From the IMG/VR virus record IMGVR_UViG_2541047848_000002: a stretch of 43,934 nt of DNA; one strand, 5' to 3'. The notes under the pieces were generated by a model, which saw only the letters and a program-made list of their open reading frames with translations, made no database searches and was not told where the DNA came from. The stretch is from a virus. Lineage: Duplodnaviria; Heunggongvirae; Uroviricota; Caudoviricetes. Positions 3,322 through 40,186 of this stretch are shown piece by piece (the stretch's first letter is position 1; every line of letters begins with the position of its first letter). The position numbers and the translations under genes were made by a program.

Positions 3322-4103
3322 GCAGCCACCTTCTGCTCAGAGGCTTTCTGTTTCAGGAATCCAAGAGCTTTCACTGCTTCGGCCTGTGTCAGTTCTGACG
3401 ATGCGCGAATGTCGCGGCGAAATATCTGGGAACAGAGCGGCAATAAGTCGTCATCCCATGTTTTATCCAGGGCAATCAGCAGAGTGTTAATCTCCTGCAT
3501 GGTTTCATCGTTAACCGGAGTGATGTCGCGTTCCGGCTGACGTTCTGCAGTGTATGCAGTATTTTCGACAATGCGCTCGGCTTCATCCTTGTCATAGATA
3601 CCAGCAAATCCGAAGGCCAGACGGGCACACTGAATCATGGCTTTATGCCGTAACATCCGTTTGGGATGCGACTGCCACGGCCCCGTGATTTCTCTGCCTT
3701 CGCGGGTTTTGAATGGTTCGCGGCGGCATTCATCCATCCATTCGGTAACGCAGATCGGATGATTGCGGTCCTTGCGGTAAATCCGGCATGTACAGGATTC
3801 GTTGTCCTGCTCAAAGTCCATGCCATCAAACTGCTGGTTTTCATTGATGATGCGGGACCAGCCATCAACGCCCACCACCGGAACGATGCCATTCTGCTTA
3901 TCAGGAAAGGCGTAAATTTCTTTCGTCCATGGATTAAGGCCGTACTGGTTGGCAACGATCAGTAATGCGATGAACTGCGCATCGCTGGCATCACCTTTAA
4001 ATGCCGTCTGGCGAAGAGTGGTGATCAGTTCCTGTGGGTCGACAGAATCCATGCCGACACGTTCAGCCAGCTTCCCTGCCAGCGTTGCGAGTGCTGTACT
4101 CAT
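3318..4103 (-). CDS. bet: Recombinase Bet (Red beta, single-strand annealing protein)
   Basis: 261-aa ORF ([37 protein letters not shown]...) matching lambda Bet by recall; sits in the gam-bet-exo order. Confidence 0.95.
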
Positions 4104-4108
4104 CCGTT

Positions 4109-4405
4109 TTATACCTCTGAATCAATATCAACCTGGTGGTGAGCAATGGTTTCAACCATGTACTGGATGTGTTCTGCCATGCGCTCCTGAAACTCAACAT
4201 CGTCATCAAACGCACGGGTAATGGCTTTTTTGCTGGCCCCGTGGCGTTGCAAATGATCGATGCATAGCGATTCAAACAGGTGCTGGGGCAGGCCTTTTTC
4301 CATGTCGTCTGCCAGTTCTGCCTCTTTCTCTTCACGGGCGATCTGCTGGTAGTAACGCGCCCAGCTCTGAGCCTCAAGACGATCCTGAATGTAATAAGCG
4401 TTCAT
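4109..4405 (-). CDS. gam: Gam, RecBCD inhibitor
   Basis: 98-aa ORF ([39 protein letters not shown]...) matching the short form of lambda Gam by recall. Confidence 0.9.
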
Positions 4406-4480
4406 GGCTGAACTCCTGAAAATGGCTGTGAAAATATCGCCCGCGAAATGCCAGGCTGATTAGGAAAACAGGAAAGGGGA

Positions 4481-4771
4481 TTAGCGATTCAGGCCGTTAC
4501 CGCGTCCGTCGAGAAAAACTTCCACGAGCAAATCACGGGTATAAGTGCGCTCGATGCCGCGATGCAGATAAAGCCGTCCGCGTAAATTAGCTGATGCAGT
4601 CCAGGTACCATCTTTGTGTTTGACCAGCATTCCTGGCATGACCGCGCCGCGATTAACGGTCTGCGTTCTGTAATGTTGATGAACCATAAAAACTCCTGCC
4701 CGTAAGCTGGGCTGCTGAACATATAGAGACTTCTGCGCGTATTCAGGCGGTGGATGGCCGCCGGTTGTCAT
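4481..4771 (-). CDS. Hypothetical early-left protein (kil/cIII position)
   Basis: 96-aa ORF, first ORF downstream of the putative PL promoter and upstream of gam; basic, His/Arg-rich, no arginine-rich N-terminal motif; an overlapping 77-aa ORF in another frame is a competing call. Confidence 0.35.
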
Positions 4772-4964
4772 AACTAAGCCGCCTCGTTGAAGCGACTAAG
4801 GTATGAAATGTTGAGTTGATTTCAGCTGGTCACACCGACGTTCACGCGTCCGTTTCACCCCTCGCACTCCCCGAAGCCTGCTGAAATTCAAACTGCGGAT
4901 CTAAGCGGTCATCGCAACGGTGAATCAGGTGGTTGCCGTATCGTTGTGTTGTTGCGATGAACTT

Positions 4965-4993
4965 ATTTAAAACTATAGTTGTTTTACCGTCAA
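4965..4993 (-). promoter_or_regulatory. Candidate PL promoter (minus strand: TTGACG-N17-TTAAAT) with overlapping operator-like inverted repeats
   Basis: Read on the minus strand: -35 TTGACG (plus 4988-4993), 17-nt spacer, -10 TTAAAT (plus 4965-4970); adjacent palindrome AACAAC-aaaa-GTTGTT (about 4992-5007) and further GGTTGT half-sites up to about 5040, resembling the OR half-sites. Confidence 0.35.
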
Positions 4994-5133
4994 CAACAAA
5001 AGTTGTTTTATTGGTTGTTTTAGATATAACTGGTTGTATTTAGGATGGATTTATTTTGTGACTTGAATCGCATAGCGATAACTGAAGCGAGGTTATGGTG
5101 GTTTTTTTAACGGTGTGTGTGATGAGGGGAGGG

Positions 5134-5163
5134 GACAAAAGAAAACCCGGCACGGTGGCCGGG
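5134..5163 (-). terminator. Rho-independent terminator downstream of the cI-partner-kinase operon
   Basis: On the minus strand: GC stem CCCGGC/GCCGGG (plus 5146-5151 / 5158-5163) followed by a U-run (plus 5134-5145, reading TTTTCTTTTGTC on the minus strand). Confidence 0.5.
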
Positions 5164-5330
5164 CTAGATCTTAAAGTATTTATCTTTTAGAGATGTAGAT
5201 GCAAAATTTTTTGCCTTTGAAAATTTTTTGTCATCAGAAGAGCTTATGAACTCATCTTTTTTGTAGGGAACCGCTAATGCTGCATCACGTCTGCGAGGCA
5301 GCTTACTTACTTCCTCGCACTTTTTCATGA

Positions 5331-6377
5331 TCAGTTATCCTTTAATAACCTATACAGTTTTGTAGGGGTACATCCTGAGGATATTGTTAAGTTCGTAGCA
5401 CGCCTTTTCCGCCCACCATCGTATAAACGAAAACCAGTAGTAGACGAATTTTCTGCGTCAAAAACTATAGACAGTATAACGTCCTCAGACTTTTTTTGCC
5501 ATTCATATGTGCCGTTAGTTGGTTTTGTCATCTGTAGACGCCAGTCAAGAACGCCATCACTTATAGCTGAGAGATCGTTTAGTACGTCTAGTACGGATTG
5601 ATATCTTTCATTTGGATCTACATGAATGCATTTGTTTACTATTGTTATCAATTTTTTATGTATGTGGGAAGGATACTCTTTTAATGGATAGGAGCCATTA
5701 ATTATCGACTCTCTGAGTTGTTCAATCGTTCTAAATGCAGATCTTTCTCTTTCAAAATTATCATATCCAACACACATTCTATATATGGTTAATCCTGCCT
5801 GATATATGTCATATGTGAAATTATAATCATTTGTTGATAAAGAAAAATATTCCGGTGGCACATGAAAATGATATCCAAACTCAGGCGCAGCTCTCGATTC
5901 CTCATTGACTAACTGAGACAATCCAAAGTCAGATAGCATGGCCTCATTTCTGTTTGATATCATGATGTTATTAGGTTTTATATCAAAATGCATAAGACCT
6001 TTTGAGTGTATATGATAAAGCCCACTTAAAAATTGAATAGAATACCGTATTATCTCCCTGCTCGTAAGATTAATCTTTTTTATTAATTGGTTTAGCGAAC
6101 CATTATGATAAAATGGCATGGCTATATAGATATTGCTCTCACATTGAGCAGCATACTGAACTTGCACAATATTTGGATGTGCATGTTTATAGAGAAGCCT
6201 TGCTTCATTAAAGTAGTCGTCGTGGTTAGTGTTTTCTTTTTTTTCTATTTCTTTAATCACCAAGTCATGAGCTAGGTGTCTGTCATGAGCCAGATATACT
6301 TTTGAAAAACAACCCTGTTCTTCTAGATCACGAATCCATTCGAATGCTACATCAGCTCTTTTGTATGGAGTCAGCAT
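5331..6377 (-). CDS. Hanks-type (eukaryotic-like) Ser/Thr protein kinase, lysogen-expressed
   Basis: 348-aa ORF with kinase subdomain motifs: VIKEI (VAIK-like Lys), HFDIKPNN (catalytic loop, HRD variant), SDFGLS (DFG), PPEY (APE-like); about 90 extra C-terminal residues; about 33% GC; strong SD GGAGGT 8 nt upstream; start overlaps the stop of the upstream gene (ATGCTGA). Confidence 0.85.
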   Translation of the reverse strand: MLTPYKRADVAFEWIRDLEEQGCFSKVYLAHDRHLAHDLVIKEIEKKENTNHDDYFNEARLLYKHAHPNIVQVQYAAQCESNIYIAMPFYHNGSLNQLIKKINLTSREIIRYSIQFLSGLYHIHSKGLMHFDIKPNNIMISNRNEAMLSDFGLSQLVNEESRAAPEFGYHFHVPPEYFSLSTNDYNFTYDIYQAGLTIYRMCVGYDNFERERSAFRTIEQLRESIINGSYPLKEYPSHIHKKLITIVNKCIHVDPNERYQSVLDVLNDLSAISDGVLDWRLQMTKPTNGTYEWQKKSEDVILSIVFDAENSSTTGFRLYDGGRKRRATNLTISSGCTPTKLYRLLKDN

Positions 6378-6832
6378 CCCCTTACCTCCGCAGATAGTGC
6401 AGCCAAAACAGCTTCATTTGTTTCAGTTGTAAAACCAGAATTATCGATTCCATTTATATTACGGTGTGACTTCAATATTTCTTTATACTCGATCTCTGTT
6501 AGGTTCAATGATGACTTCATACCAGATTTTCTAATGGTGTAATATCTTCTTACATCACTGCTTGAAAATGCTTCTTGAATAACAGCTTCTATATAAAGGC
6601 GGTCAATGCTAAGATTATCAGAGTTTGATTCAGTAACGCGTATAGCAGCTAATTCAACATTATATAAATTAAGAATGTCGAGGATGTTATTTCGCACATA
6701 CTTTAATTTTTCTGGTGTGTCTAAGGTCGAAGGTATTTTAATAACATCAACACATTTGAGTGCAGACTCATCAGTGCAATATACAACAAAAGATGTAACT
6801 TTGGGCGCCGCCCTAACACCTAGTATTCTCAT
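6371..6832 (-). CDS. Hypothetical protein, translationally coupled partner of the kinase
   Basis: 153-aa ORF immediately downstream of cI in the same orientation (rexA-equivalent position); low GC; stop overlaps kinase start; no domain recognised. Confidence 0.7.
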   Translation of the reverse strand: MRILGVRAAPKVTSFVVYCTDESALKCVDVIKIPSTLDTPEKLKYVRNNILDILNLYNVELAAIRVTESNSDNLSIDRLYIEAVIQEAFSSSDVRRYYTIRKSGMKSSLNLTEIEYKEILKSHRNINGIDNSGFTTETNEAVLAALSAEVRGC

Positions 6833-6912: not shown

Positions 6913-7602
6913 TTATCCATGTTTCCTGTATGTTTGCGGCATGCTCCCAATAACTTTCCCGAAGATAAACACCCGGTTCATCTCGTCTTTCTCGATTGGG
7001 TCCCACGGTGAGTAGCTCTTGTTATCAGAGATAACCAGCAGTTTATCCTTCATCATTTGCAGGCGCTTAACATGGGCTGTGTCGTCGTACAGAAACGCAT
7101 AGATACCATCACCGTCGAAAGATTTAACTGTGATATCAACGAACAGCAGATCACCTGGTTCGATCGTTCCTGACATGCTGTCACCACGCACGTTAATGAT
7201 GCGGATATTTTCCGCCTTCCTACCATCGAACATATGACGAGCATCGTCAAACGAGTACTCAACCGAGCGTAGAACTTCTACAAACTCACGGTTGATGACT
7301 CCCGGCCCAGCACTGACTTCTATATCAAGAACGTCAATCTTGAAGTATTTGGAATGGCTGACAGTTGATTGTATTGGTTGCACTGTACTGTCTGACATAT
7401 TTCCAACGCCAGAAGATAACCATTCTGCGCGCACACCCAAAGCGTTCGCGATCTCCACGATTTTAGTTGTTTGATTAGCTTTCCCTGTTTCGATTTTCTG
7501 AATAGCAGCTTGGCTAACCCCGACCAAATCCCCAAGCGCCTTTTGTGTAAGGCCTCGCGCTAATCTGGCTTCTTTAAGTCTTTCTGAGAGTGTTGTTTTC
7601 AT
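6913..7602 (-). CDS. cI: CI-type prophage repressor (HTH plus S24 LexA-like peptidase domain)
   Basis: ORF 6913..7668; probable start MKTTLSERLKEARLARGLTQKALGDLVGVSQAAIQKIE (HTH_XRE); C-terminal domain has Ala-Gly cleavage site (SAGPG), GDSM catalytic Ser and KRL Lys, typical of RecA-stimulated autocleaving repressors; divergent from cro. Confidence 0.9.
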   Translation of the reverse strand: MKTTLSERLKEARLARGLTQKALGDLVGVSQAAIQKIETGKANQTTKIVEIANALGVRAEWLSSGVGNMSDSTVQPIQSTVSHSKYFKIDVLDIEVSAGPGVINREFVEVLRSVEYSFDDARHMFDGRKAENIRIINVRGDSMSGTIEPGDLLFVDITVKSFDGDGIYAFLYDDTAHVKRLQMMKDKLLVISDNKSYSPWDPIEKDEMNRVFIFGKVIGSMPQTYRKHG

Positions 7603-7706
7603 AGTCCAAATGTACAACCAAGGTTTTATTTCATCAAACGAAAATGGTTGTTGACTAAAAACAACCATAGTTTTAATCTTGATTCAAATTAACCACGGAG
7701 GTTGTT
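7603..7706. promoter_or_regulatory. OR operator / PR-PRM region between cI and cro
   Basis: 104-bp divergent intergenic region; candidate PR: -35 TTGACT (7651-7656), 17-nt spacer, -10 TAATCT (7674-7679); inverted repeats ATGGTTGTT-N7-AACAACCAT and AACCAAGGTT as operator candidates; SD GGAGG before the cro ATG. Confidence 0.5.
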
Positions 7707-10433: not shown

Positions 10434-11099
10434 ATGAAAATCATACAGTTACAAATGGTATTTTTTTACGATTCATCAACGACTGTCGATTTCGATGGAA
10501 TGTCGTATTTTATTAGGCAAACTTTTAAAAAGAAGGCAGGTATTGAATTAACAAACAATATGATGTTGGGCGTTTTACCTATGGATACCCCACCAGAGAT
10601 TCCTCGTCTCCAATTGTTTTCTATAGATAATAAATTTAGAGTTCAATGCTCACTGCAGAGATGTGATTTGTTTTTTGAACGTATGGATTCTGAGCAAGAG
10701 GTAGACTTACATTTGTTTCAAGAAGTTTTCGATAGTGTGGTTGATATCCATAAAGAACTCAATAAGGATATTATCAGAATAGGCTTGGTGGCCGTTAAGG
10801 CGGAATTAAACAACAACCCAAACAAAGAGATTGTTAAAAACTATCTTAGTAACAACATGCAGAATGATAGCGAAATAATTGAAGATATTAATTTAATGTA
10901 TAATAAAAAATTCGAGTTTGAGCAGTCCATATTTAATTGTCATTTGTCGATTATGTCAGGATATGATCTTGTCAGAGAACAACCAATGCTAGTGAAACAG
11001 ATCGATGTGAATACAATCGAGAGTTTTATATTTAAAGATAAATATACCGCAGAAAAAACAAAAAAAGCCTTTTTAAGTAAAGTGAATGAAATTCAGTAA
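10434..11099 (+). CDS. Hypothetical protein, first gene of an AT-rich accessory cassette
   Basis: 221-aa ORF in an about 30% GC island directly after P (lambda ren position); no recognisable domain; weak SD. Confidence 0.7.
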   Translation: MKIIQLQMVFFYDSSTTVDFDGMSYFIRQTFKKKAGIELTNNMMLGVLPMDTPPEIPRLQLFSIDNKFRVQCSLQRCDLFFERMDSEQEVDLHLFQEVFDSVVDIHKELNKDIIRIGLVAVKAELNNNPNKEIVKNYLSNNMQNDSEIIEDINLMYNKKFEFEQSIFNCHLSIMSGYDLVREQPMLVKQIDVNTIESFIFKDKYTAEKTKKAFLSKVNEIQ

Positions 11100-11113
11100 T
11101 GTGAGGTGGCTGA

Positions 11114-12073
11114 ATGAATAAGGATGATAATAAAAAGGATATAAAAAGAATTGCAAATAATAATGCTATAGTCAACGATGACATGGCAAAAAGAACTGCG
11201 CATCATTCACTTTATTCTAATTCACAAGTATCGAATAGTACATCTACGTATACAGGAGGGGTACAAAAAATTAGTAATTTGCAGATAGATAATAAAACTG
11301 CAACAGCTTCAAATAAAGAGCGGGAAAGTATATCTATCAAAGACGCGGCACCACAAAACTTAATAAAAACCTCTCTTTTTGTTAATGAAAAAGAAATGTT
11401 GCATGAAGCTATAAAATACAGTTCAAAAGCAACTGTGCCGGTGATGGATAATACTGTCTCTAATGCCATTTTATCTAATTACTTTGTTAATAATAATTCT
11501 GAATCTACAATTTCTTTTAATAAAGAGAATGTAAAAAAATATACAAAAAGTGATATTGATAACATCCTCTGGAAAAATATCAATGATCAACTAACCAATT
11601 TTTCGCAAGAGTTGAATAAGAGCAAAAAGAATATTAATGATACTAAAAGAAAAATAGGTAAGGTAATGTCTTCATTATCTCAGCAAACTGCAAAGATTGA
11701 GCAATTTGATGCAACATTATCAGATGCTGAAAAAGATATACATGAGAAAGTTAAAAGCTTTGAATCGGAAGTAATTACAGCAAGGAACTCAATGCTGGGT
11801 GTCATTGCTTTATTTGCTTCTTTCTTTACTTTCATTTCTATTTCAGTAAACGTATTTTCTCGCGATATGTCTTTAAGCATGTCAATCTCAGTTTTGTTAG
11901 TGATATGGTCGTGCTTAATTAGCTTTATCTTTGTTTTTATGGCAGGGATTAGCAAGGGAGGAGCTTTTTTTACAAGCTCATCATTTATTAAGCATGCCAT
12001 TTTTATGGTTGTGCTTTTTATTTCATCTTTCGCACTCCCTAAAGTTATTTTTAATATCTTTGCAATTAGCTGA
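11114..12073 (+). CDS. Hypothetical membrane protein with N-terminal Asn/Ser-rich coiled-coil region and C-terminal multi-helix hydrophobic domain
   Basis: 319-aa ORF 14 nt after the previous gene with strong SD GAGGTGG; the C-terminal about 100 aa contain three hydrophobic helix-like segments (LGVIALFASFFTFISISVNVF; ISVLLVIWSCLISFIFVFMAGI; AIFMVVLFISSFALPKVIF); about 30% GC. Confidence 0.75.
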   Translation: MNKDDNKKDIKRIANNNAIVNDDMAKRTAHHSLYSNSQVSNSTSTYTGGVQKISNLQIDNKTATASNKERESISIKDAAPQNLIKTSLFVNEKEMLHEAIKYSSKATVPVMDNTVSNAILSNYFVNNNSESTISFNKENVKKYTKSDIDNILWKNINDQLTNFSQELNKSKKNINDTKRKIGKVMSSLSQQTAKIEQFDATLSDAEKDIHEKVKSFESEVITARNSMLGVIALFASFFTFISISVNVFSRDMSLSMSISVLLVIWSCLISFIFVFMAGISKGGAFFTSSSFIKHAIFMVVLFISSFALPKVIFNIFAIS

Positions 12074-13547: not shown

Positions 13548-14057
13548 ATGATGTGGAACTTTGACAGTGCCGACTTAAGTGCAATAGCAGCAGGCATTTC
13601 TGCGTTTGGCACATTAGCCGCAGCGGGGTCGGCGCTTGCAAGTTGGTACACGTCAAAAAAAGCGCTGCAGCTACAAAATAGAGTTTACCTTTATGAGTCT
13701 TTAAAGGCTTGCGCTGAGAGAGCCAATTCATCAGCTAAAGATAAGCGCGGATCTGAATGGAGCGTTAATGATGCAGCGGATATCATCAGGTGCCTAGTAC
13801 GGGCGATGGAGATCATCAAGCAGGATAGCCAGCAGAAAGAAGGTAATCAGGCATTAATGTTGAAACAGTACTTTGTTAATCTGCTAATAATGGAACTGTA
13901 CGAGGAAGTTCATAACGGTGATGCGGCTGATTCTGTTTTTAAAAGGACGGAACCTACACAAGTACTTGATAACTTATGGGGCAAATGGCAGGAGGCTATA
14001 GCTTTTTTTGATATTTGGAATTACCCAGTTGCGACTGAGGAAGACTTGGCAGACTAA
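13548..14057 (+). CDS. Hypothetical protein with N-terminal hydrophobic (Ala/Gly-rich) segment
   Basis: 169-aa ORF (MMWNFDSADLSAIAAGISAFGTLAAAGSALASWY...) preceded by an AT-rich region; no domain recognised. Confidence 0.6.
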   Translation: MMWNFDSADLSAIAAGISAFGTLAAAGSALASWYTSKKALQLQNRVYLYESLKACAERANSSAKDKRGSEWSVNDAADIIRCLVRAMEIIKQDSQQKEGNQALMLKQYFVNLLIMELYEEVHNGDAADSVFKRTEPTQVLDNLWGKWQEAIAFFDIWNYPVATEEDLAD

Positions 14058-15160: not shown

Positions 15161-15519
15161 ATACCTACAGCATCACATTACCCTGGCCTCCGAGCAATAA
15201 TCGCTATTACCGCCATAATCGCGGGCGCACGCACATCAGCGCAGAAGGGCTGGCATACCGCGATAACGTCACCCGAATCATTAAAAACGCAATGCTGGAT
15301 ATCGGCCTGGCTATGCCAGTGAAAATCCGTATTGAGTGCCACATGCCGGATCGCCGTCGCCGTGACCTGGATAATCTGCAAAAAGCCGCTTTTGACGCAC
15401 TCACCAAAGCAGGTTTCTGGCTGGATGATGCTCAGGTCGTTGATTACCGCGTTGTGAAGATGCCTGTTACCAAAGGTGGGAGGCTGGAACTGACCATCAC
15501 CGAAATGGGGAATGAATGA
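15157..15519 (+). CDS. rusA: Holliday junction resolvase RusA
   Basis: 120-aa ORF ([26 protein letters not shown]...[34 protein letters not shown]...) matching E. coli RusA by recall. Confidence 0.95.
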
Positions 15520-15656
15520 TGTTTGAGTTTAATATGGCAGAACTTCTTCGCCACCGCTGGGGGCGTCTGCGCTTATATCGTTTCCCCGGTTCTGTTTTGA
15601 CCGATTACCGAATACTGAAGAATTACGCCAAAACACTGACAGGAGCAGGAGTATGA
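15516..15656 (+). CDS. Small nin-region ORF (YlcG-like)
   Basis: 46-codon ORF ([46 protein letters not shown]) overlapping the rusA stop, between rusA and Q as in DLP12; not on ORF track (<60 aa). Confidence 0.4.
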
Positions 15657-15741
15657 AGTCAGAGATAACAATCAACTAATACTGTTTTGTTGATTTTTGC
15701 TTGTAATTGGCGTTCTGGTCTGATTTTTGTGGAGTAAGTTG

Positions 15742-16125
15742 ATGCGTGATATTCAGATGGTTCTTGAGCGTTGGGGAGCGTGGGCGGCTAATAATCATGA
15801 AGATGTGACCTGGTCGTCCATTGCCGCCGGTTTTAAGGGATTAATTACTTCAAAAGTAAAATCTCGCCCGCAATGTTGTGACGATGACGCGATGATTATT
15901 TGCGGGTGCATGGCCCGTCTGAAAAAGAACAACAGCGATTTGCACGATTTATTAGTAGATTATTATGTAGTCGGTATGACATTCATGTCACTGGCAGGTA
16001 AGCATTGCTGCTCTGATGGTTATATCGGGAAAAGGTTACAGAAGGCTGAGGGCATAATTGAAGGGATGTTAATGGCATTAGATATCCGGTTAGAGATGGA
16101 TATCGTTGTTAATAACTCTAATTAA
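15742..16125 (+). CDS. Q: Late-gene antiterminator Q (phage 82/DLP12 QuuD type)
   Basis: ORF 15727..16125 (TTG start on track); probable ATG at 15742 ([22 protein letters not shown]...); Cys-rich zinc-binding region; directly upstream of the late/lysis region. Confidence 0.85.
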
Positions 16126-16140
16126 TATGCCAATTGTTTA

Positions 16141-16176
16141 CTAAAAATTATTAAAAATGGGGCGTTGAGACGCCCC
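16141..16176 (-). terminator. Rho-independent terminator (minus strand) between convergent Q and porin genes
   Basis: Stem GGGGCGT/ACGCCCC (16159-16176) followed on the minus strand by a U-rich run (plus 16141-16158); one of four hairpins in 16150-16300. Confidence 0.45.
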
Positions 16177-16314
16177 CAAAAATAAAGGGTAATATATAAC
16201 AGAAGGTTTATATAGTTAGAAGCAAGGTTGTGCTTCTAAAGGAAGTGGCTTGAGGGAGCCACTTATATGTTGGGGAGGCAACGCCTCCCGCAACATATCT
16301 TTTTCGTAATCAGA

Positions 16315-17397
16315 TTAGAACTGGTAAACCAGACCTACAGCAACGATGTCATCAGTATCAATACCAGCTGTTTTGGTAAACTTACTATCGTCAATTAAGT
16401 TGATTTTGTAATCAACAAAAGTGGACATGTTTTTATTAAAGTAGTAAGTAGCACCGACATCGACATACTTGACTAAGTCTCGGTCACCATGAACACCAAG
16501 GTCTTTACCTTTTGACTGAAGGTAAGCAACAGATGGGCGCAGACCGAAGTCAAACTGATATTGTGCTACTGCTTCAAAGTTTTGTGCTTTGTTTGCAATA
16601 TGGTTATTACCAAAAACGGTCATATTCTGAGTTTCAGAATATGTGGTAGCCAGATAGATATTGTTCGCATCATATTTCAGGCCTGCAGCCCATACTTCCG
16701 CATTTTTGCCGGAGGCATTGAATTTGCTCTTACCATAGGCGACCTGACCGTCAGTGCGATCTGATTTAGCATAGGTTGCACCCACGCCGAATCCTTCATA
16801 CTCATAAGTAGTGGAGAAACCGAAACCATCACCATTGGCTTCAGTTACGTCAGTGCGGTCATTTTTACCCTGATACTGAGCAGCAAAGTTCAGGCCATCG
16901 ACCAGACCAAAGAAGTCGTTGTTACGATAAGTTGCAACACCAGTAGTGCGACCAGTCATGAACACATCTGTTTGGGTCCAGGTATCACCACCGAATTCTG
17001 GCAGGACGTCAGTCCACGCACCGATGTCGTATGCTACACCGTAGTTACGGCCGTAATCGATTGAGCCGTAATCACCAAATTTCAGGCCTGCAAATGCAAG
17101 ACGGGTTTTGTCTTTGGAAGAACCTTGAGATTCAGCGCGGTTGCCTTTGAATTCATATTCCCACTGACCGAAACCAGTCAGTTGATCGTTGATTTGGGTT
17201 TCACCTTTGAAGCCAAGACGGGCATAAGTAGTATCACCATCATCTGCATCATTAGAGGAGAAGTAGTGCTTAGCATTAACTTTCCCGTACAGATCCAGCT
17301 TGTTACTGTCTTTATTATAAATTTCAGCTGCCTGAGCAGACATCGCCATCAGTACTGATGCAGCTACAGCAGAAATTGCCACTGTTAATTTTTTCAT
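16315..17397 (-). CDS. nmpC: Outer-membrane general porin (NmpC/OmpD/Lc family)
   Basis: 360-aa ORF with signal peptide ([29 protein letters not shown]), typical porin beta-strand pattern and C-terminal ...GLVYQF; sits between Q and the holin on the opposite strand, as nmpC does in DLP12. Confidence 0.93.
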
Positions 17398-17825
17398 CGT
17401 GAGCCCTTTTTTTTGAACTATTATTAAAAAATGATGTCACTGCGTGATAAATATTCATCTAATCAATGTGATTATTTCAAGATGTAAGTTTTGGTTTCTC
17501 GTTTAATTTGTGAAGTAGATCTCTATTTTTATCTGAACTTTTTTCTATCGAATCCTATTCATGGCTCTTGGCTGAATAAAAATAAATCTATTAGCCAATT
17601 TATATTAATGGCTGTTATTTATAAGTGCTCTATAATTTGAAGGTTCAATTTAAATTGGCTAAAAATAACGCTGGAAATTATTTGTTGGTTATTTGTTGAG
17701 ATTTGCTTATGTATTTGTAGTGGTGTTTTCAATACTCGGTAGCATTCTCGCAAATATCATTTAGTGGTTTACGTACGTAAAAAATTGGTTATGCTGTTAA
17801 GAGTGGTTACTTCGTCACACAGCTT

Positions 17826-17856
17826 AAACCCGCCGTCGAGCGGGTTTTTCCATTTT
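17826..17856 (+). terminator. Rho-independent terminator about 115 bp upstream of the holin gene
   Basis: Stem AAACCCGC / GCGGGTTT (17826-17833 / 17840-17847) followed by TTTCCATTTTTT. Confidence 0.5.
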
Positions 17857-17970
17857 TTGAGTCTCGATATTAGCTGATAACCCAATACCTGAGTTATTCA
17901 CTGACTCCGAGTCTGTTACGTTTCGTAGTATTCCCTCAATTTACACCCGCTTTGTCTGCGAGGTGGGGTT

Positions 17971-18186
17971 ATGAAATCCATGGATAAGTTAACAACGGGT
18001 GTCGCCTATGGCACCTCAGCAGGTAGTGCCGGGTACTGGTTTTTACAGCTGCTCGATAAAGTCACGCCCTCACAGTGGGCAGCAATAGGTGTGCTGGGTA
18101 GCCTGGTATTTGGCCTGCTGACGTACCTGACAAACCTTTATTTCAAGATTAAAGAAGATAAGCGCAAGGCTGCGAGAGGTGAATAA
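17971..18186 (+). CDS. S: Class II holin (pinholin, S21/EssD type)
   Basis: 71-aa ORF with two hydrophobic helix-like segments and dual-start motif MKSM (Met1/Met4); SD GAGGTGGGG; followed by a SAR endolysin. Confidence 0.85.
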
Positions 18187-18683
18187 TGCCTCCATCATTA
18201 CGAAAAGCTGTTGCTGCTGCTATTGGTGGCGGGGCTATTGCTATAGCATCTGTGTTAATCACTGGCCCAAGTGGTAACGATGGTCTGGAAGGTGTGAGAC
18301 ATAATCCTTACAAAGACATAGTTGGTGTATGGACTGTATGTTACGGGCATACAGGAAAAGACATCATTCCCGGTAAAACGTATACCGAAGCAGAGTGCAA
18401 AGCCCTCCTGAATAAAGACCTTGCCACTGTCGCCAGACAAATTAACCGGTACATCAAAGTCGATATACCGGAAACAACGCGCGGCGCTCTTTACTCGTTC
18501 GTCTACAACGTGGGTGCTGGCAATTTCAGAACATCGACGCTTCTTCGCAAAATAAACCAGGGTGATATTAAAGGCGCATGTGTTCAGCTACGGCGCTGGA
18601 CATACGCTGGCGGTAATCAATGGAAAGGACTGATGACTCGCCGTGAGATTGAGCGTGAAGTCTGTTTGTGGGGGAAACAATGA
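18186..18683 (+). CDS. R: SAR endolysin (lysozyme, R21/RrrD type)
   Basis: 165-aa ORF with N-terminal signal-anchor-release segment ([20 protein letters not shown]) followed by a lysozyme domain ([23 protein letters not shown]); start overlaps holin stop. Confidence 0.9.
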
Positions 18684-19147
18684 GCAGAGTAACCGCGATT
18701 ATCTCCGCTCTGGTTATCTGCATCATCGTCTGCCTGTCATGGGCTGTTAATCATTACCGTGATAATGCAATCGCCTACAAAGAACAGCGCGATAACAAGG
18801 CCAGTGAACTGGAGAAGGCGAACGCCACCATTACTGACATGCAGCAGCGCCAGCGTGATGCTGATGCACTCGATGATAAATACACGAAGGAGTTAGCTGA
18901 TGCGAAAGCTGAAAATGATGCTCTTCGGCGCAAGCTTGATAATGGTGGTCGGGTGCTCGTCAAAGGAAAATGCCCTGTGCCATCCTCAGCCGAAACCTCC
19001 AGCGCCTCCGGCATGGGCAATGATGCCACCGTCGAACTCTCTCCAGTTGCTGGACGAAACGTTCTCGGTATCCGGGACGGAATTATCCGCGACCAAACAG
19101 CATTGAGAACGCTTCAGGAATACATCAGGACGCAATGCCTTCGATGA
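18680..19147 (+). CDS. Rz: Rz i-spanin
   Basis: ORF 18668..19147; probable ATG at 18680 overlapping R stop (ATGA); N-terminal TM segment then coiled-coil-rich periplasmic domain; contains the nested Rz1 ORF. Confidence 0.8.
18900..19106 (+). CDS. Rz1: Rz1 o-spanin lipoprotein (embedded in +1 frame of Rz)
   Basis: 68-aa ORF wholly inside Rz in another frame; signal peptide with lipobox VVGC; Pro-rich mature region ([11 protein letters not shown]). Confidence 0.7.
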
Positions 19148-19638: not shown

Positions 19639-20064
19639 TTAGTGCGGAAATATTTGTGTGGTGTTCTGAATGTTCTCAGTAAAGAGTAATGAATTATCAA
19701 AGGTATAGTAATACCTTTTGTTTTCGTGGATATTTGTAATCCATCTGAAAACCCCTGCTGTAGCAAGATTTTTCCTGTATTCGTAAAATGATAACTCTCC
19801 TGATTTGAATCCTTTTAAGGTGGCTTCTATAAGGCATTTATTTTTTGAAAATCTTACATTTACAACCTTACTCTGTCCTTTTATTAAAACCGTATTATCG
19901 TTTTCAAGAACAAGATGAATATTCTCTGTGGCTAAATAGTAAATGTAATGTGAGACATTGTGACGTTTTAGTTCAGAATAAAACCAGTGATAGTTTAAAT
20001 TATTTCGCACTTTATCGAATATTTGTTTAAAAATGGCAACCTGAGCCATTGTAGTACCTTCCAT
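19639..20064 (-). CDS. Hypothetical protein (lambda right-arm ORF-like), AT-rich
   Basis: 141-aa ORF, about 30% GC, between lysis genes and cos on the opposite strand; I recall equivalent ORFs near the right end of lambda, not verified. Confidence 0.65.
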
Positions 20065-20106
20065 GTGATATGAAGGTACCTAGTCTGCACGATTATCTAA
20101 ATTGCT

Positions 20107-20340
20107 TCAATCTGGTCTGACCTGCTTTCTGAGCAATTCAGTAATGTCACTCTTTTCTTTGTTTGCTTCAGGCGAAACTCTTTTTTCTGAGCACAGTCTT
20201 CGGCGGCAGGCTTCAATGACCCAGGCTGAGAAATTCCCGGACCCTTTTTGATCAAGAGCGATGTTAATTTGTTCAATCATTTGGTTAGGAAAGCGGATGT
20301 TGCGGGTTGTTGTTCTGCGGGTTCTGTTCTTCGTTGACAT
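20107..20340 (-). CDS. Small basic protein with possible ribbon-helix-helix-like region
   Basis: 77-aa ORF (MSTKNRTRRTTTRNIRFPNQMIEQINIALDQKGSGNFSAWVIEACRRRL...) 43 bp upstream of the 141-aa gene on the same strand. Confidence 0.6.
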   Translation of the reverse strand: MSTKNRTRRTTTRNIRFPNQMIEQINIALDQKGSGNFSAWVIEACRRRLCSEKRVSPEANKEKSDITELLRKQVRPD

Positions 20341-20551: not shown

Positions 20552-20728
20552 CGCGGGTTTTCGCTATTTATGAAAATTTTCCGGTTTAAGGCGTTTCCGT
20601 TCTTCTTCGTCGTAACTTAATGTTTTTATTTAAAATACCCCCTGAAAAGAAAGGAAACGACAGGTGCTGAAAACGAACTTTTGGGCCTCTGTCGTTTCCT
20701 TTCTCTGTTTTTGGCCGTGGAATGAACA

Positions 20729-21248
20729 ATGGAAGTCAACAAAAAGCAGCTGGCTGACATTTTCGGTGCGAGTATCCGTACCATTCAGAACTGGCAGGAA
20801 CAGGGAATGCCCGTTCTGCGAGGCGGTGGCAAGGGTAATGAGGTGCTTTATGACTCTGCCGCCGTTATAAAATGGTATGCCGAAAGGGATGCTGAAATTG
20901 AGAACGAAAAGCTGCGCCGGGAAGTTGAAGAACTGCGGCAGGCCAGCGAGACAGATCTCCAGCCAGGGACTATTGAGTACGAACGCCACCGACTTACGCG
21001 TGCACAGGCCGACGCACAGGAGCTGAAAAATGCCAGAGACTCCGCTGAAGTGGTGGAAACCGCATTCTGTACTTTCGTGCTGTCGCGGATCGCAGGTGAA
21101 ATTGCCAGTATTCTCGACGGGATCCCCCTGTCGGTGCAGCGGCGTTTTCCGGAACTGGAAAACCGACATGTTGATTTCCTGAAACGGGATATCATCAAAG
21201 CCATGAACAAAGCAGCCGCGCTGGATGAACTGATACCGGGGTTGCTGA

Positions 21249-39586: not shown

Positions 39587-40186
39587 ATGCGTAAATTATG
39601 TGCTGTTATTCTGTCCACAGTAGTCTGGCTGGTCGCCGCTGGTACGCCAGCGAGCGCAGCAGAGCATCAGTCCACACTAAGCGCCGGGTATCTTCAGACC
39701 CATACTGATATGCCCGGCAACGATGACCTGAAGGGCATTAACGTGAAATACCGTTATGAATTTACGGACACGCTGGGGCTGGTGACGTCATTCAGTTATG
39801 CCAATGCCAAAGATGAGCAAAAAACGCATTACAGCGATACCCGCTGGCATGAAGATTCAGTGCGTAACCGCTGGTTCAGCATGATGGCGGGGCCGTCTGT
39901 ACGCGTGAATGAATGGTTCAGTGCTTATGCGATGGCAGGTGTGGCTTACAGCCGTGTTTCGACTTTTTCCGGGGATTATCTCCGCGTAACTGACAGCAAG
40001 GGGAAAACGCACGATGTGCTGACCGGAAGTGATGACGGTCGCCACAGCAACACGTCTCTGGCGTGGGGGGCTGGCGTGCAGTTTAACCCGACCGAATCCG
40101 TGGCCATTGATATTGCTTATGAAGGCTCCGGCAGTGGTGACTGGCGCACTGACGGTTTCATCGTGGGTGTCGGTTATAAATTCTGA
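39587..40186 (+). CDS. lom: Outer-membrane protein Lom (Ail/Lom family)
   Basis: 199-aa ORF with signal peptide (MRKLCAVILSTVVWLVAAGTPASA) and beta-barrel-type C-terminus (...GVGYKF); lambda lom position. Confidence 0.9.
   Translation: MRKLCAVILSTVVWLVAAGTPASAAEHQSTLSAGYLQTHTDMPGNDDLKGINVKYRYEFTDTLGLVTSFSYANAKDEQKTHYSDTRWHEDSVRNRWFSMMAGPSVRVNEWFSAYAMAGVAYSRVSTFSGDYLRVTDSKGKTHDVLTGSDDGRHSNTSLAWGAGVQFNPTESVAIDIAYEGSGSGDWRTDGFIVGVGYKF

Follow-up and report, generated by a model that had tools for sequence, protein, structure and literature searches.

The closest described counterpart of the locus analysed here is nmpC, a porin gene of the DLP12 prophage of E. coli K-12, which is flanked by quuD (Q) and essD (holin) and oriented opposite to them. 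The lc gene of phage PA-2, reportedly the subject of work in the Schnaitman laboratory between 1975 and 1986, presumably encodes a porin of the same type, in the same position and orientation as the one described below. A porin moron at this place is already known from PA-2 lc and DLP12 nmpC, many lambda-like prophages of E. coli carry such a reversed gene between Q and the lysis genes, and finding another has little discovery value in itself. The K-12 promoter of this gene (PnmpC) is a sigma-70 promoter contained within 199 bp of the start codon, with a transcription start mapped by 5'RACE. It is active in K-12 without prophage induction, and the control of NmpC involves CRP, OmpR, IHF, MprA and RyhB, and not the classical ompC control region (PMC11677980). 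The second relevant system is the pR'-qut-terminator module of 933W and of Sakai Sp5/Sp15, the source of the StxS RNA, which belongs to phages with a Q of the same family. In the Sakai Stx phages the pR' start was mapped by dRNA-seq, 258 nt from tR' (PMC7547250). This distance corresponds to the end of the second terminator annotated in 933W, and the mapped start fits the annotated coordinates.

The window, which is the whole stretch of 43,934 nucleotides that was analysed, contains a complete lambda-like prophage, from integrase through tail fibres, whereas DLP12 is a remnant. Its Q antiterminator gene (15742-16125, plus strand) encodes a 127 aa protein of the QuuD/Q933W type (Phage_antitermQ PF06530, E = 3.5e-53), which shares 77% amino acid identity with the Q of 933W and is a distant sequence relative of the Q21 structures 6P18 and 6JNX. 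The first late gene (17971-18186, plus strand) encodes an S21-type holin/antiholin (P21 holin S, PF04971, E = 2e-35), with the same dual start (M1/M4) that is annotated in phage 434B, and profile searches placed a SAR-type lysozyme (endolysin) at 18186-18683 and Rz at 18668-19147. No convincing ORF for an N-type antiterminator was found to the left of the repressor (4100-5330).

Located between Q and the holin gene, on the minus strand, is an intact porin gene of the NmpC/Lc type (16315-17397). A preliminary description of this DNA had proposed a full-length porin with a signal peptide at this place, and the reading was borne out by the ORF, the profile match and the structural alignment. The ORF encodes 360 aa without internal stops, and residues 29-360 cover the Pfam Porin_1 profile (PF00267) from position 1 to 337 of 337 (E = 1.9e-151). 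Matches to the PDB chains of OmpC, OmpK36, PhoE and OmpF had E values from 1e-137 to 1e-111. The porin from residue 24 onward aligns with residue 1 of the mature OmpC, PhoE and OmpF chains, indicating a signal peptide of 23 residues, encoded by 17329-17397. This leader is hydrophobic and ends in AQA, followed by the mature N-terminus AEIYNK, while the C-terminus (GLVYQF) carries the terminal aromatic Phe typical of porins. The chromosomal OmpC, OmpF and PhoE belong to the same fold family and share this mature N-terminus and the C-terminal Phe, but the porin described here is phage-borne, and it differs from OmpC in loop lengths in the C-terminal half. Its 70.7% identity to the solved OmpC structure 2xe2 implies a 16-stranded trimeric beta-barrel, predicted to act as a diffusion channel. 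Several E. coli chromosomes have an identical protein annotated as WP_000737271.1, and the gene product can be regarded as a full-length and apparently functional porin of the moron type.

The comparison with DLP12 nmpC that had been proposed earlier showed a like position and orientation and 91.9% amino acid identity to NmpC reconstructed without IS5. The K-12 gene is interrupted by IS5 after codon 346, whereas the gene in the window is intact, and the two are different alleles, with 86% nucleotide identity within the gene versus 97.6-100% in the flanks. Over the Q-porin spacer, the pR' module and the holin leader, the window shows 100% identity with the K-12-derived segment carried by phage 434B, and its AT-rich segment (17398-17766) shares 97.6% identity with K-12 DLP12. 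Changes among porin alleles are grouped in a few short patches, with only three variable sites in residues 1-148; together with the maintenance of an intact ORF in many genomes, this restriction suggests that the porin is under selection.

The equivalent of PnmpC would lie in the 199 bp upstream of the porin start codon (17398-17596, minus strand). This region is part of an AT-rich spacer (17398-17766, 27-31% G+C, with 27% in 17400-17700) that extends from the divergent porin promoter to pR' and accompanies the porin in all loci examined. The best promoter candidate on the minus strand has TTGAAA at 17480-17475 and GAATAT at 17456-17451, separated by 18 nt; it is weak by sequence, and would give a G start near 17443. 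By analogy with K-12 and with PA-2, the porin would be expressed in the lysogen. The suggestion of the preliminary description that the porin has its own promoter in the AT-rich 17398-17700 region agrees with the identity of this region to the K-12 sequence with the mapped PnmpC (PMC11677980), and the gene also has its own terminator (H1, see below). The porin could instead be intact but silent cargo without a role in the lysogen, for instance through H-NS silencing of the 27% G+C upstream tract, an idea in keeping with the strong AT bias of the tract and with the tolerance of the K-12 gene to IS5 disruption without a growth phenotype (PMC11677980). Nevertheless, PnmpC transcription is detectable in uninduced K-12 (PMC11677980), and the ORF has stayed intact in many genomes with its first 148 residues almost invariant, which makes silent cargo unlikely.

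The position of the late promoter determines how this gene relates to late transcription. In lambda, 82 and 21 the late promoter adjoins Q, as it also does in the annotation of 933W, and the same placement in the window would send late transcripts antisense through about 1.8 kb of porin sequence, with the hairpins downstream of Q insulating the porin. This arrangement had been assumed in the preliminary description, and the abundance of hairpins in the spacer after Q can be counted in its favour. However, the pR' homologue cognate to this Q family was found past the porin, on the plus strand at 17768-17802, with a -35 element TTTACG (17768-17773) identical to that of 933W, a -10 element TATGCT (17790-17795) and a predicted start at A17802. 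It aligns to the annotated 933W pR' (TTTACG-16-TATCAT), and 17767-17849 matches the stretch of 933W and VT1-Sakai that carries the pR', qut and terminator annotations. The segment homologous to pR', qut and the first hairpin of 933W (17768-17849) is thus located downstream of the porin, 120 bp before the holin gene. No pR'-like sequence was found between Q and the porin (16126-16314), nor any decent promoter match; no site in this spacer passed the promoter scan, and the best loose match has a 19-nt spacer and lies inside H1. The hairpins are also poorly suited to insulation, since H1 is a terminator for transcripts of the other strand and there is no T-run at H2 or H3. A late promoter immediately after Q, with antisense transcription through the porin, is therefore very improbable.

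The surroundings of the module in other genomes are consistent with its displacement from Q. Similarity to other Q genes of the QuuD/Q933W type stops after GAGATGGAT (16093-16101), about 8 codons short of the Q stop, and the inserted cargo begins there on its left side. The 933W module has no insert and overlaps the 3' end of Q, whereas in the window a 1.67-kb porin cassette lies between Q and the module. The pR' block is kept in phages with different upstream cargo, and the module follows the porin in every fetched porin-bearing locus that retains the late region; in one of these, tRNA genes come next, which is also the order in 933W, and the module is absent from a remnant (L009) that has neither Q nor late genes. 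This constant position on the holin side indicates that the porin cassette was inserted between Q and pR', and that late transcription would not cross the porin. As a whole, the best explanation of the locus is a late promoter at 17768-17802 with the porin cassette between Q and pR', to which we assign a probability of about 0.85. A strict promoter scan of both intergenic regions found no site, and with looser scoring neither the porin promoter nor pR' stood out from the AT-rich background; because scoring could not single them out, promoters were placed by homology and from the literature. The -10 element TATGCT is imperfect, and a crude score puts other AT-rich plus-strand sites slightly above pR'.

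Downstream of the predicted start, a conserved initial transcribed region (TAAGAGTGGTTAC..., 17796-17825, plus strand) overlaps the qut annotated in 933W and is nearly invariant in the window, PhiR40_1, SfII and 933W, in the last of which the initial transcribed block TAAGAGTGGTTAC is invariant. This is presumed to be the region of Q engagement and pausing. It is followed by a tR'-like terminator on the plus strand (17826-17858), composed of an 8-bp stem (17826-17847) and the T-tract TTTTTCCATTTTTT, which is homologous to the first 933W hairpin (AACCCGCCG...CGGGTTTTT, 20726-20748). A scan of the interval from pR' to the holin gene gave no other terminator-like site on the plus strand. The plus-strand terminator at 17826-17856 in the preliminary description is thus present, but an interpretation as the target of Q, directly after pR', suits it better than a role as an insulator of the porin. 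The pR' RNA detected in the Sakai Stx phages measures 258 nt (PMC7547250), so that their first hairpin is evidently read through, and by this analogy the hairpin at 17826-17858 may be leaky. The arrangement further downstream also differs, as 933W has a second terminator at +258 followed by tRNA and stx genes, whereas the window has a single hairpin and the holin gene after 113 nt.

The 189-nt spacer between Q and the porin (16126-16314) is highly structured, with folding z-scores of -7.4 (minus strand) and -5.9 (plus strand), and none of 200 shuffled sequences folded as well. It contains four strong hairpins and one weak hairpin. After the 7-bp GC stem of the first, H1 (16159-16176; dG -13.9 kcal/mol), the minus strand alone continues with AUUUUUAAUAAUUUUU, which assigns H1 to the porin. 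Its stem is unchanged in seven variants, with substitutions confined to the loop, and by these features H1 is the predicted intrinsic terminator of the porin transcript. The weak hairpin (16193-16214) is AT-only, without a T-run, and forms part of the minimum-free-energy structure on either strand. H2 (16216-16239; 9-bp stem, 6-nt loop, dG -10.4 kcal/mol, z = -3.7) and H3 (16243-16264; 9-bp stem, 4-nt loop, dG -13.5 kcal/mol, z = -5.3) come without a T-run on either strand. H4 (16265-16297) has 15 pairs with one bulge around an inner GC stem at 16272-16289, with dG values of -21.3 (plus strand) and -23.3 kcal/mol (minus strand) and z about -6.5, and is followed on the plus strand by CTTTTT, ending at 16303. 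Four hairpins had been described in this spacer before: the positions of H1 and of the H4 stem are retained, but those of H2 and H3, given as 16207-16224 and 16229-16250, were 10-14 nt off.

The same features bear on the idea that these hairpins act as barriers to late transcription, which is not supported: H1 would stop transcripts of the porin strand alone, neither H2 nor H3 has a T-run, and the T-run of H4, five long in the window, is only three or four long in other alleles. The poor conservation of this run also makes the terminator role of H4 uncertain, and H4 with CTTTTT is regarded as a candidate weak terminator for plus-strand transcripts leaving Q. Alternatively, H2-H4 may not be terminators at all, but a structured 3'UTR that shields the porin transcript from 3' exonucleases, the source of a stable 3'-derived small RNA, or a sequence that pairs with the complementary 3' end of Q transcripts. 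On the porin strand no U-tail follows H4, H3 or H2, the one canonical terminator being H1 at the end of the series, and H2 is probably part of a structured porin 3'UTR. Among seven E. coli spacer variants, 6 of 94 stem columns were variable, compared with 27 of the 95 columns outside the stems (Fisher p = 8e-5), a pattern of purifying selection on stems with variable loops, and the T-run after H4 is not conserved. On the other hand, no compensatory pair changes were found in the five spacer hairpins among the seven alleles, an Rfam scan of 15500-18300 (E up to 1) gave no match above the gathering score, and H4 with CTTTTT could still stop some plus-strand transcripts. Since the stems hardly vary, covariation shuffles were uninformative, and only the substitution bias between stems and loops was informative. 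We consider that H2-H4 could act as structured RNA, although this is less probable than not; such a role is compatible with the placement of the cassette between Q and pR', which it would refine. In the same Rfam scan, a Trp_leader hit on the pR'-terminator segment (20.8 bits versus a gathering score of 41) was rejected as a chance resemblance to a terminator hairpin.

These observations can be assembled into a scheme in which a reversed porin cassette of ~1.67 kb (roughly 16100-17766) was placed exactly between the Q 3' end and pR'. The cassette would be a self-contained moron, with a sigma-70 promoter in the AT-rich tract, a porin with a signal peptide, and a highly structured 3' region of ~155 nt ending at H1, close to the stop codon of Q. 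The porin would be made in the lysogen regardless of induction, altering the set of outer-membrane porins as a form of lysogenic conversion, and by analogy with phage PA-2 the susceptibility to porin-dependent phages and colicins would plausibly be altered as well. Transcription from pR', starting near 17802, would proceed away from the porin and meet the 17826-17858 hairpin at once. Q, produced from the early rightward transcript, is expected to modify RNA polymerase at pR' and thereby carry transcription into S, R, Rz and the structural genes, and the insert would leave the late operon unaffected. Read-through of the early transcript past Q would be the only plus-strand transcription converging on the porin, and H4, depending on its termination efficiency, may partly stop it. 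With the cargo outside the late operon, there would be no antisense conflict with late transcription to explain.

The site between Q and pR' is also occupied in other phages. The porin is absent from it in 933W, where Q abuts pR', and other phages carry unrelated genes there, all on the minus strand: a 148-aa protein in PhiR40_1, the two-gene candidate defence system PDC-M53A/B in SfII, the lipocalin Blc in Lambda_2E9 and, after a Q fragment, an LpxR-family gene (lipid A deacylase by annotation) in phage 434. No pR' homologue was found within 1.5 kb downstream of Q in Lambda_2E9, which makes this example incomplete. We tentatively propose, at somewhat less than even odds, that the junction between the Q stop and pR' in QuuD/Q933W-type phages is a dedicated slot for reversed cargo expressed in the lysogen. 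Such a slot would be insulated by design, as the terminator of the cargo faces Q and the constitutive pR' fires away from it. The ~140-nt overlap (H1-H4) between the porin 3'UTR and read-through Q transcripts could also allow early lytic transcription to shut the cargo off when the prophage is induced. For annotation, the late promoter of this phage group would have to be placed beyond the inserted cargo instead of beside Q, and the same logic would apply to other cargo at the Q-pR' junction, some of which are candidate anti-phage systems.

The same layout, with the porin on the opposite strand between Q and the S holin, occurs in 36 phage records. Of 5,426 E. coli genomes, 2,396 contain at least 80% of the 2.5-kb block, so that close to half of the complete genomes of this species carry most of it.

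The gene content of the window corresponds to a complete lambda-like prophage, from integrase through tail fibres. The integrase (1-1164) and a CI-like repressor (6913-7668) are encoded on the minus strand, and the early part contains exo/bet-type recombination genes, O, P and nin-region genes. Then come Q, the lysis cassette, the Nu1/A terminase, genes for head and tail, J, lom and tail fibres. Q (15742-16125, plus strand) matched Phage_antitermQ (E = 3.5e-53), and the late lysis genes encode an S21-type holin (17971-18186), an endolysin (18186-18683) and Rz (18668-19147).

Between Q and the holin, an intact general porin of 360 aa is encoded on the minus strand (16315-17397). The ORF covers the entire Porin_1 Pfam profile (E = 1.9e-151) and ends in ...VYQF, as is usual for the family. 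From residue 24 onward it aligns with residue 1 of the mature OmpC, OmpK36, PhoE and OmpF chains (E down to 6e-137), indicating a 23-residue signal peptide. The protein is 70.7% identical to OmpC (2xe2), and comparison with the DLP12 nmpC gene, as proposed in the preliminary description, gave 91.9% identity to K-12 NmpC once the interrupting IS5 was removed in silico. The full-length porin with signal peptide is thus confirmed, and its interpretation as a moron is supported.

A sensitive search with the porin-holin spacer as query found an 83-bp piece (17767-17849) matching hundreds of Stx phages. Its counterparts in 933W and VT1-Sakai lie right where Q ends and are annotated with pR' (the late promoter), qut and a rho-independent terminator. 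The window and 933W share the -35 hexamer TTTACG and a 16-nt spacer, with -10 hexamers of TATGCT and TATCAT, respectively; the initial transcribed region block TAAGAGTGGTTAC is invariant and the first hairpin (AACCCGCCG...CGGGTTTTT) is homologous, an alignment that we consider convincing. The Q proteins are 77% identical, and their homology ends some eight codons short of the stop. The pR' start of Sakai Stx phages, determined by dRNA-seq, lies 258 nt upstream of a Term-seq 3' end (PMC7547250); this length agrees with the promoter annotation and with where the second annotated 933W terminator ends, indicating that the annotated 933W pR' marks a real start site. A17802 would be the counterpart of this start in the window.

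The pR' module (17768-17858; promoter, initial transcribed region and first hairpin) was found beyond the porin and its AT-rich upstream tract in every fetched porin-bearing locus retaining the late region. In one of them (E. coli U1) it is followed by tRNA genes instead of the holin, as in 933W, suggesting that the module travels as a promoter unit, independent of the holin. The DLP12 remnant of E. coli O84:H7 Trh52, which has lost Q and the late genes, lacks the module. Neither a module homologue nor an acceptable promoter match was found between Q and the porin. The earlier proposal that late transcription reads about 1.8 kb antisense through the porin is therefore not upheld, since the pR' homologue sits on the holin side of the gene.

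In the proposed arrangement, the porin cassette (the gene and its flanking spacers, roughly 16100-17766) would be inserted between Q and pR', and late transcription would start ~400 bp beyond the porin start codon, directed away from it. The porin would thus lie outside the late operon, and the antisense read-through would not arise. The late transcript would meet the 17826-17858 hairpin after ~25 nt, with the holin 113 nt further on. The plus-strand terminator described before the holin (17826-17856) is present, but its location just downstream of pR' argues against a role as porin insulator, and it is predicted to be the terminator that Q must overcome. Its Stx-phage homologue (933W 20726-20748) is evidently read through despite a 7-T run, since the 258-nt pR' RNA ends at the second terminator. 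As the window hairpin is the sole terminator between pR' and the holin, it may be leaky, and basal leakage into the lysis genes is possible. The early rightward transcript reading past Q is the sole transcription able to converge on the porin. In K-12, an IS5 transposition assay showed no measurable effect of a strong terminator introduced between quuD and nmpC (PMC11677980), which weakly suggests little convergent transcription past Q in the uninduced state.

The 189-nt Q-porin spacer (16126-16314) folds more stably than its shuffles (porin strand, z = -7.4; Q strand, z = -5.9; no shuffle equalled it). All four GC hairpins of the preliminary description exist: H1 (16159-16176) and the inner stem of H4 (16272-16289, within 16265-16297) had been placed correctly, but H2 (16216-16239) and H3 (16243-16264) had been placed 10-14 nt too low, and a weak AT-only hairpin (16193-16214) had not been listed. 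H1 is followed by a U-run on the minus strand only (GGGGCGUCUCAACGCCCC-AUUUUUAAUAAUUUUU) and was called as a minus-strand terminator in a terminator scan, suggesting that it ends the porin transcript. Neither strand has a U-run after H2 or H3. On the plus strand H4 has a CUUUUU tail, shortened to three or four U in other alleles, so that any termination at H4 of transcripts coming from Q would be weak at best. These properties do not fit the suggested insulation of the porin from late transcription. Across seven E. coli spacer alleles, variable columns were fewer in stems (6/94) than in unpaired positions (27/95; p = 8e-5), and no compensatory changes were found in the stems. The spacer was present in 2,510 of 5,426 complete E. 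coli genomes and adjoined the porin in all six spacer-bearing loci examined.

The porin feature is already known. In the PA-2 work of Schnaitman and colleagues (1975-1986), the Lc porin was reportedly produced in lysogens and linked to reduced OmpC and reduced PA-2 adsorption. The AT-rich tract upstream of the window porin (27% G+C) is 97.6% identical to the K-12 region in which the equivalent promoter, PnmpC, has been characterised, in agreement with the earlier suggestion that the porin has its own promoter there. PnmpC lies within 199 bp of the start codon, with a G as 5'RACE start; CRP acts as activator and OmpR, IHF and MprA as repressors, the nmpC mRNA is a RyhB target, and in uninduced K-12 the promoter is active enough to drive the transposase gene of the IS5 element within nmpC (PMC11677980). 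Our best guess for the window promoter places TTGAAA and GAATAT, 18 nt apart, at 17480-17451 and the start at a G near 17443.

Several E. coli chromosomes have a DLP12 locus that matches the 2.5-kb Q-porin-holin block at 100% identity, and at least 80% of the block is present in 2,396 of 5,426 complete genomes. It was also found in 36 sequenced phages, where the porin is annotated as OmpC, OmpD or NmpC. Phage 434B has captured a DLP12 segment from K-12 that matches the window at 100% identity in the Q-porin spacer, the pR' module and the leader of the holin. Across the compared alleles (L004, L008-L013), divergence is highest in the porin gene, at 86-99% nucleotide identity; Q, pR' and holin have 95-100%. 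In the porin protein, 43 residues vary and form short patches (~149-151, 182-187, 216-231, 263-267, 302-312 and 335-347), mostly in the C-terminal half, residues 1-148 being nearly invariant with three variable sites. Several patches coincide with places of insertion or deletion in OmpC and are likely surface loops. The CFT073 allele encodes an identical porin between flanks that differ by 6-10%, indicative of recombination. The cassette and its hairpin spacer persist in the Trh52 remnant without Q and lysis genes (ybcM-porin-yedK), and in U1 the cassette lies in a Stx-phage-like late region, where pR' precedes tRNA-Ile and two tRNA-Arg genes, suggesting that its movement or survival does not depend on the neighbouring genes.

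At this place, other phages with a Q of the same family have different genes on the minus strand. PhiR40_1 encodes an unknown 148-aa protein between Q and pR', Lambda_2E9 the lipocalin Blc at the same site, and phage 434, following a Q fragment, an LpxR-family protein annotated as a lipid A deacylase. In the Shigella phage SfII, two minus-strand hypothetical genes between Q and pR' (L007 421-1443 and L014 3082-3666, both SfII loci) had matches to PDC-M53, a candidate defence system (A, E = 2e-32; B, E = 3e-54); in SfII the slot equivalent to that of the porin would thus hold a putative anti-phage system. The conserved pR' module follows the cargo again in PhiR40_1 and SfII, and, judging from these few examples, accessory genes in reverse orientation appear to recur at the Q/pR' junction.

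Elsewhere in the window, a eukaryotic-type Ser/Thr protein kinase gene (5331-6377, minus strand; Pkinase, E = 1e-46) matched two PADLOC defence models, PD-T4-6 and mad6. It lies, with a 153-aa ORF (6371-6832), directly downstream of the CI-like repressor gene on the same strand, a placement that suggests a lysogen-expressed defence gene. To the left of this block, no N-type antiterminator ORF was recognisable in 4100-5330, which holds only a Gam-like ORF (4109-4405) and short ORFs. Three plus-strand ORFs of 221, 319 and 169 aa in the replication/nin region (10434-12073 and 13548-14057) matched nothing in Pfam or PADLOC, and their hits were confined to PHROGs without an assigned function (phrog_24110, phrog_25335 and phrog_1779). 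A Lom/Ail-family beta-barrel gene (39587-40186, plus strand; E = 3.5e-126), located between J and the tail-fibre gene as in lambda, is a second outer-membrane moron. Two small reverse genes between Rz and Nu1 (19639-20340, minus strand) encode DUF1398 (141 aa) and DUF3950/YnfO-like (77 aa) proteins; being downstream of pR', this block is crossed by late transcription, unlike the porin.
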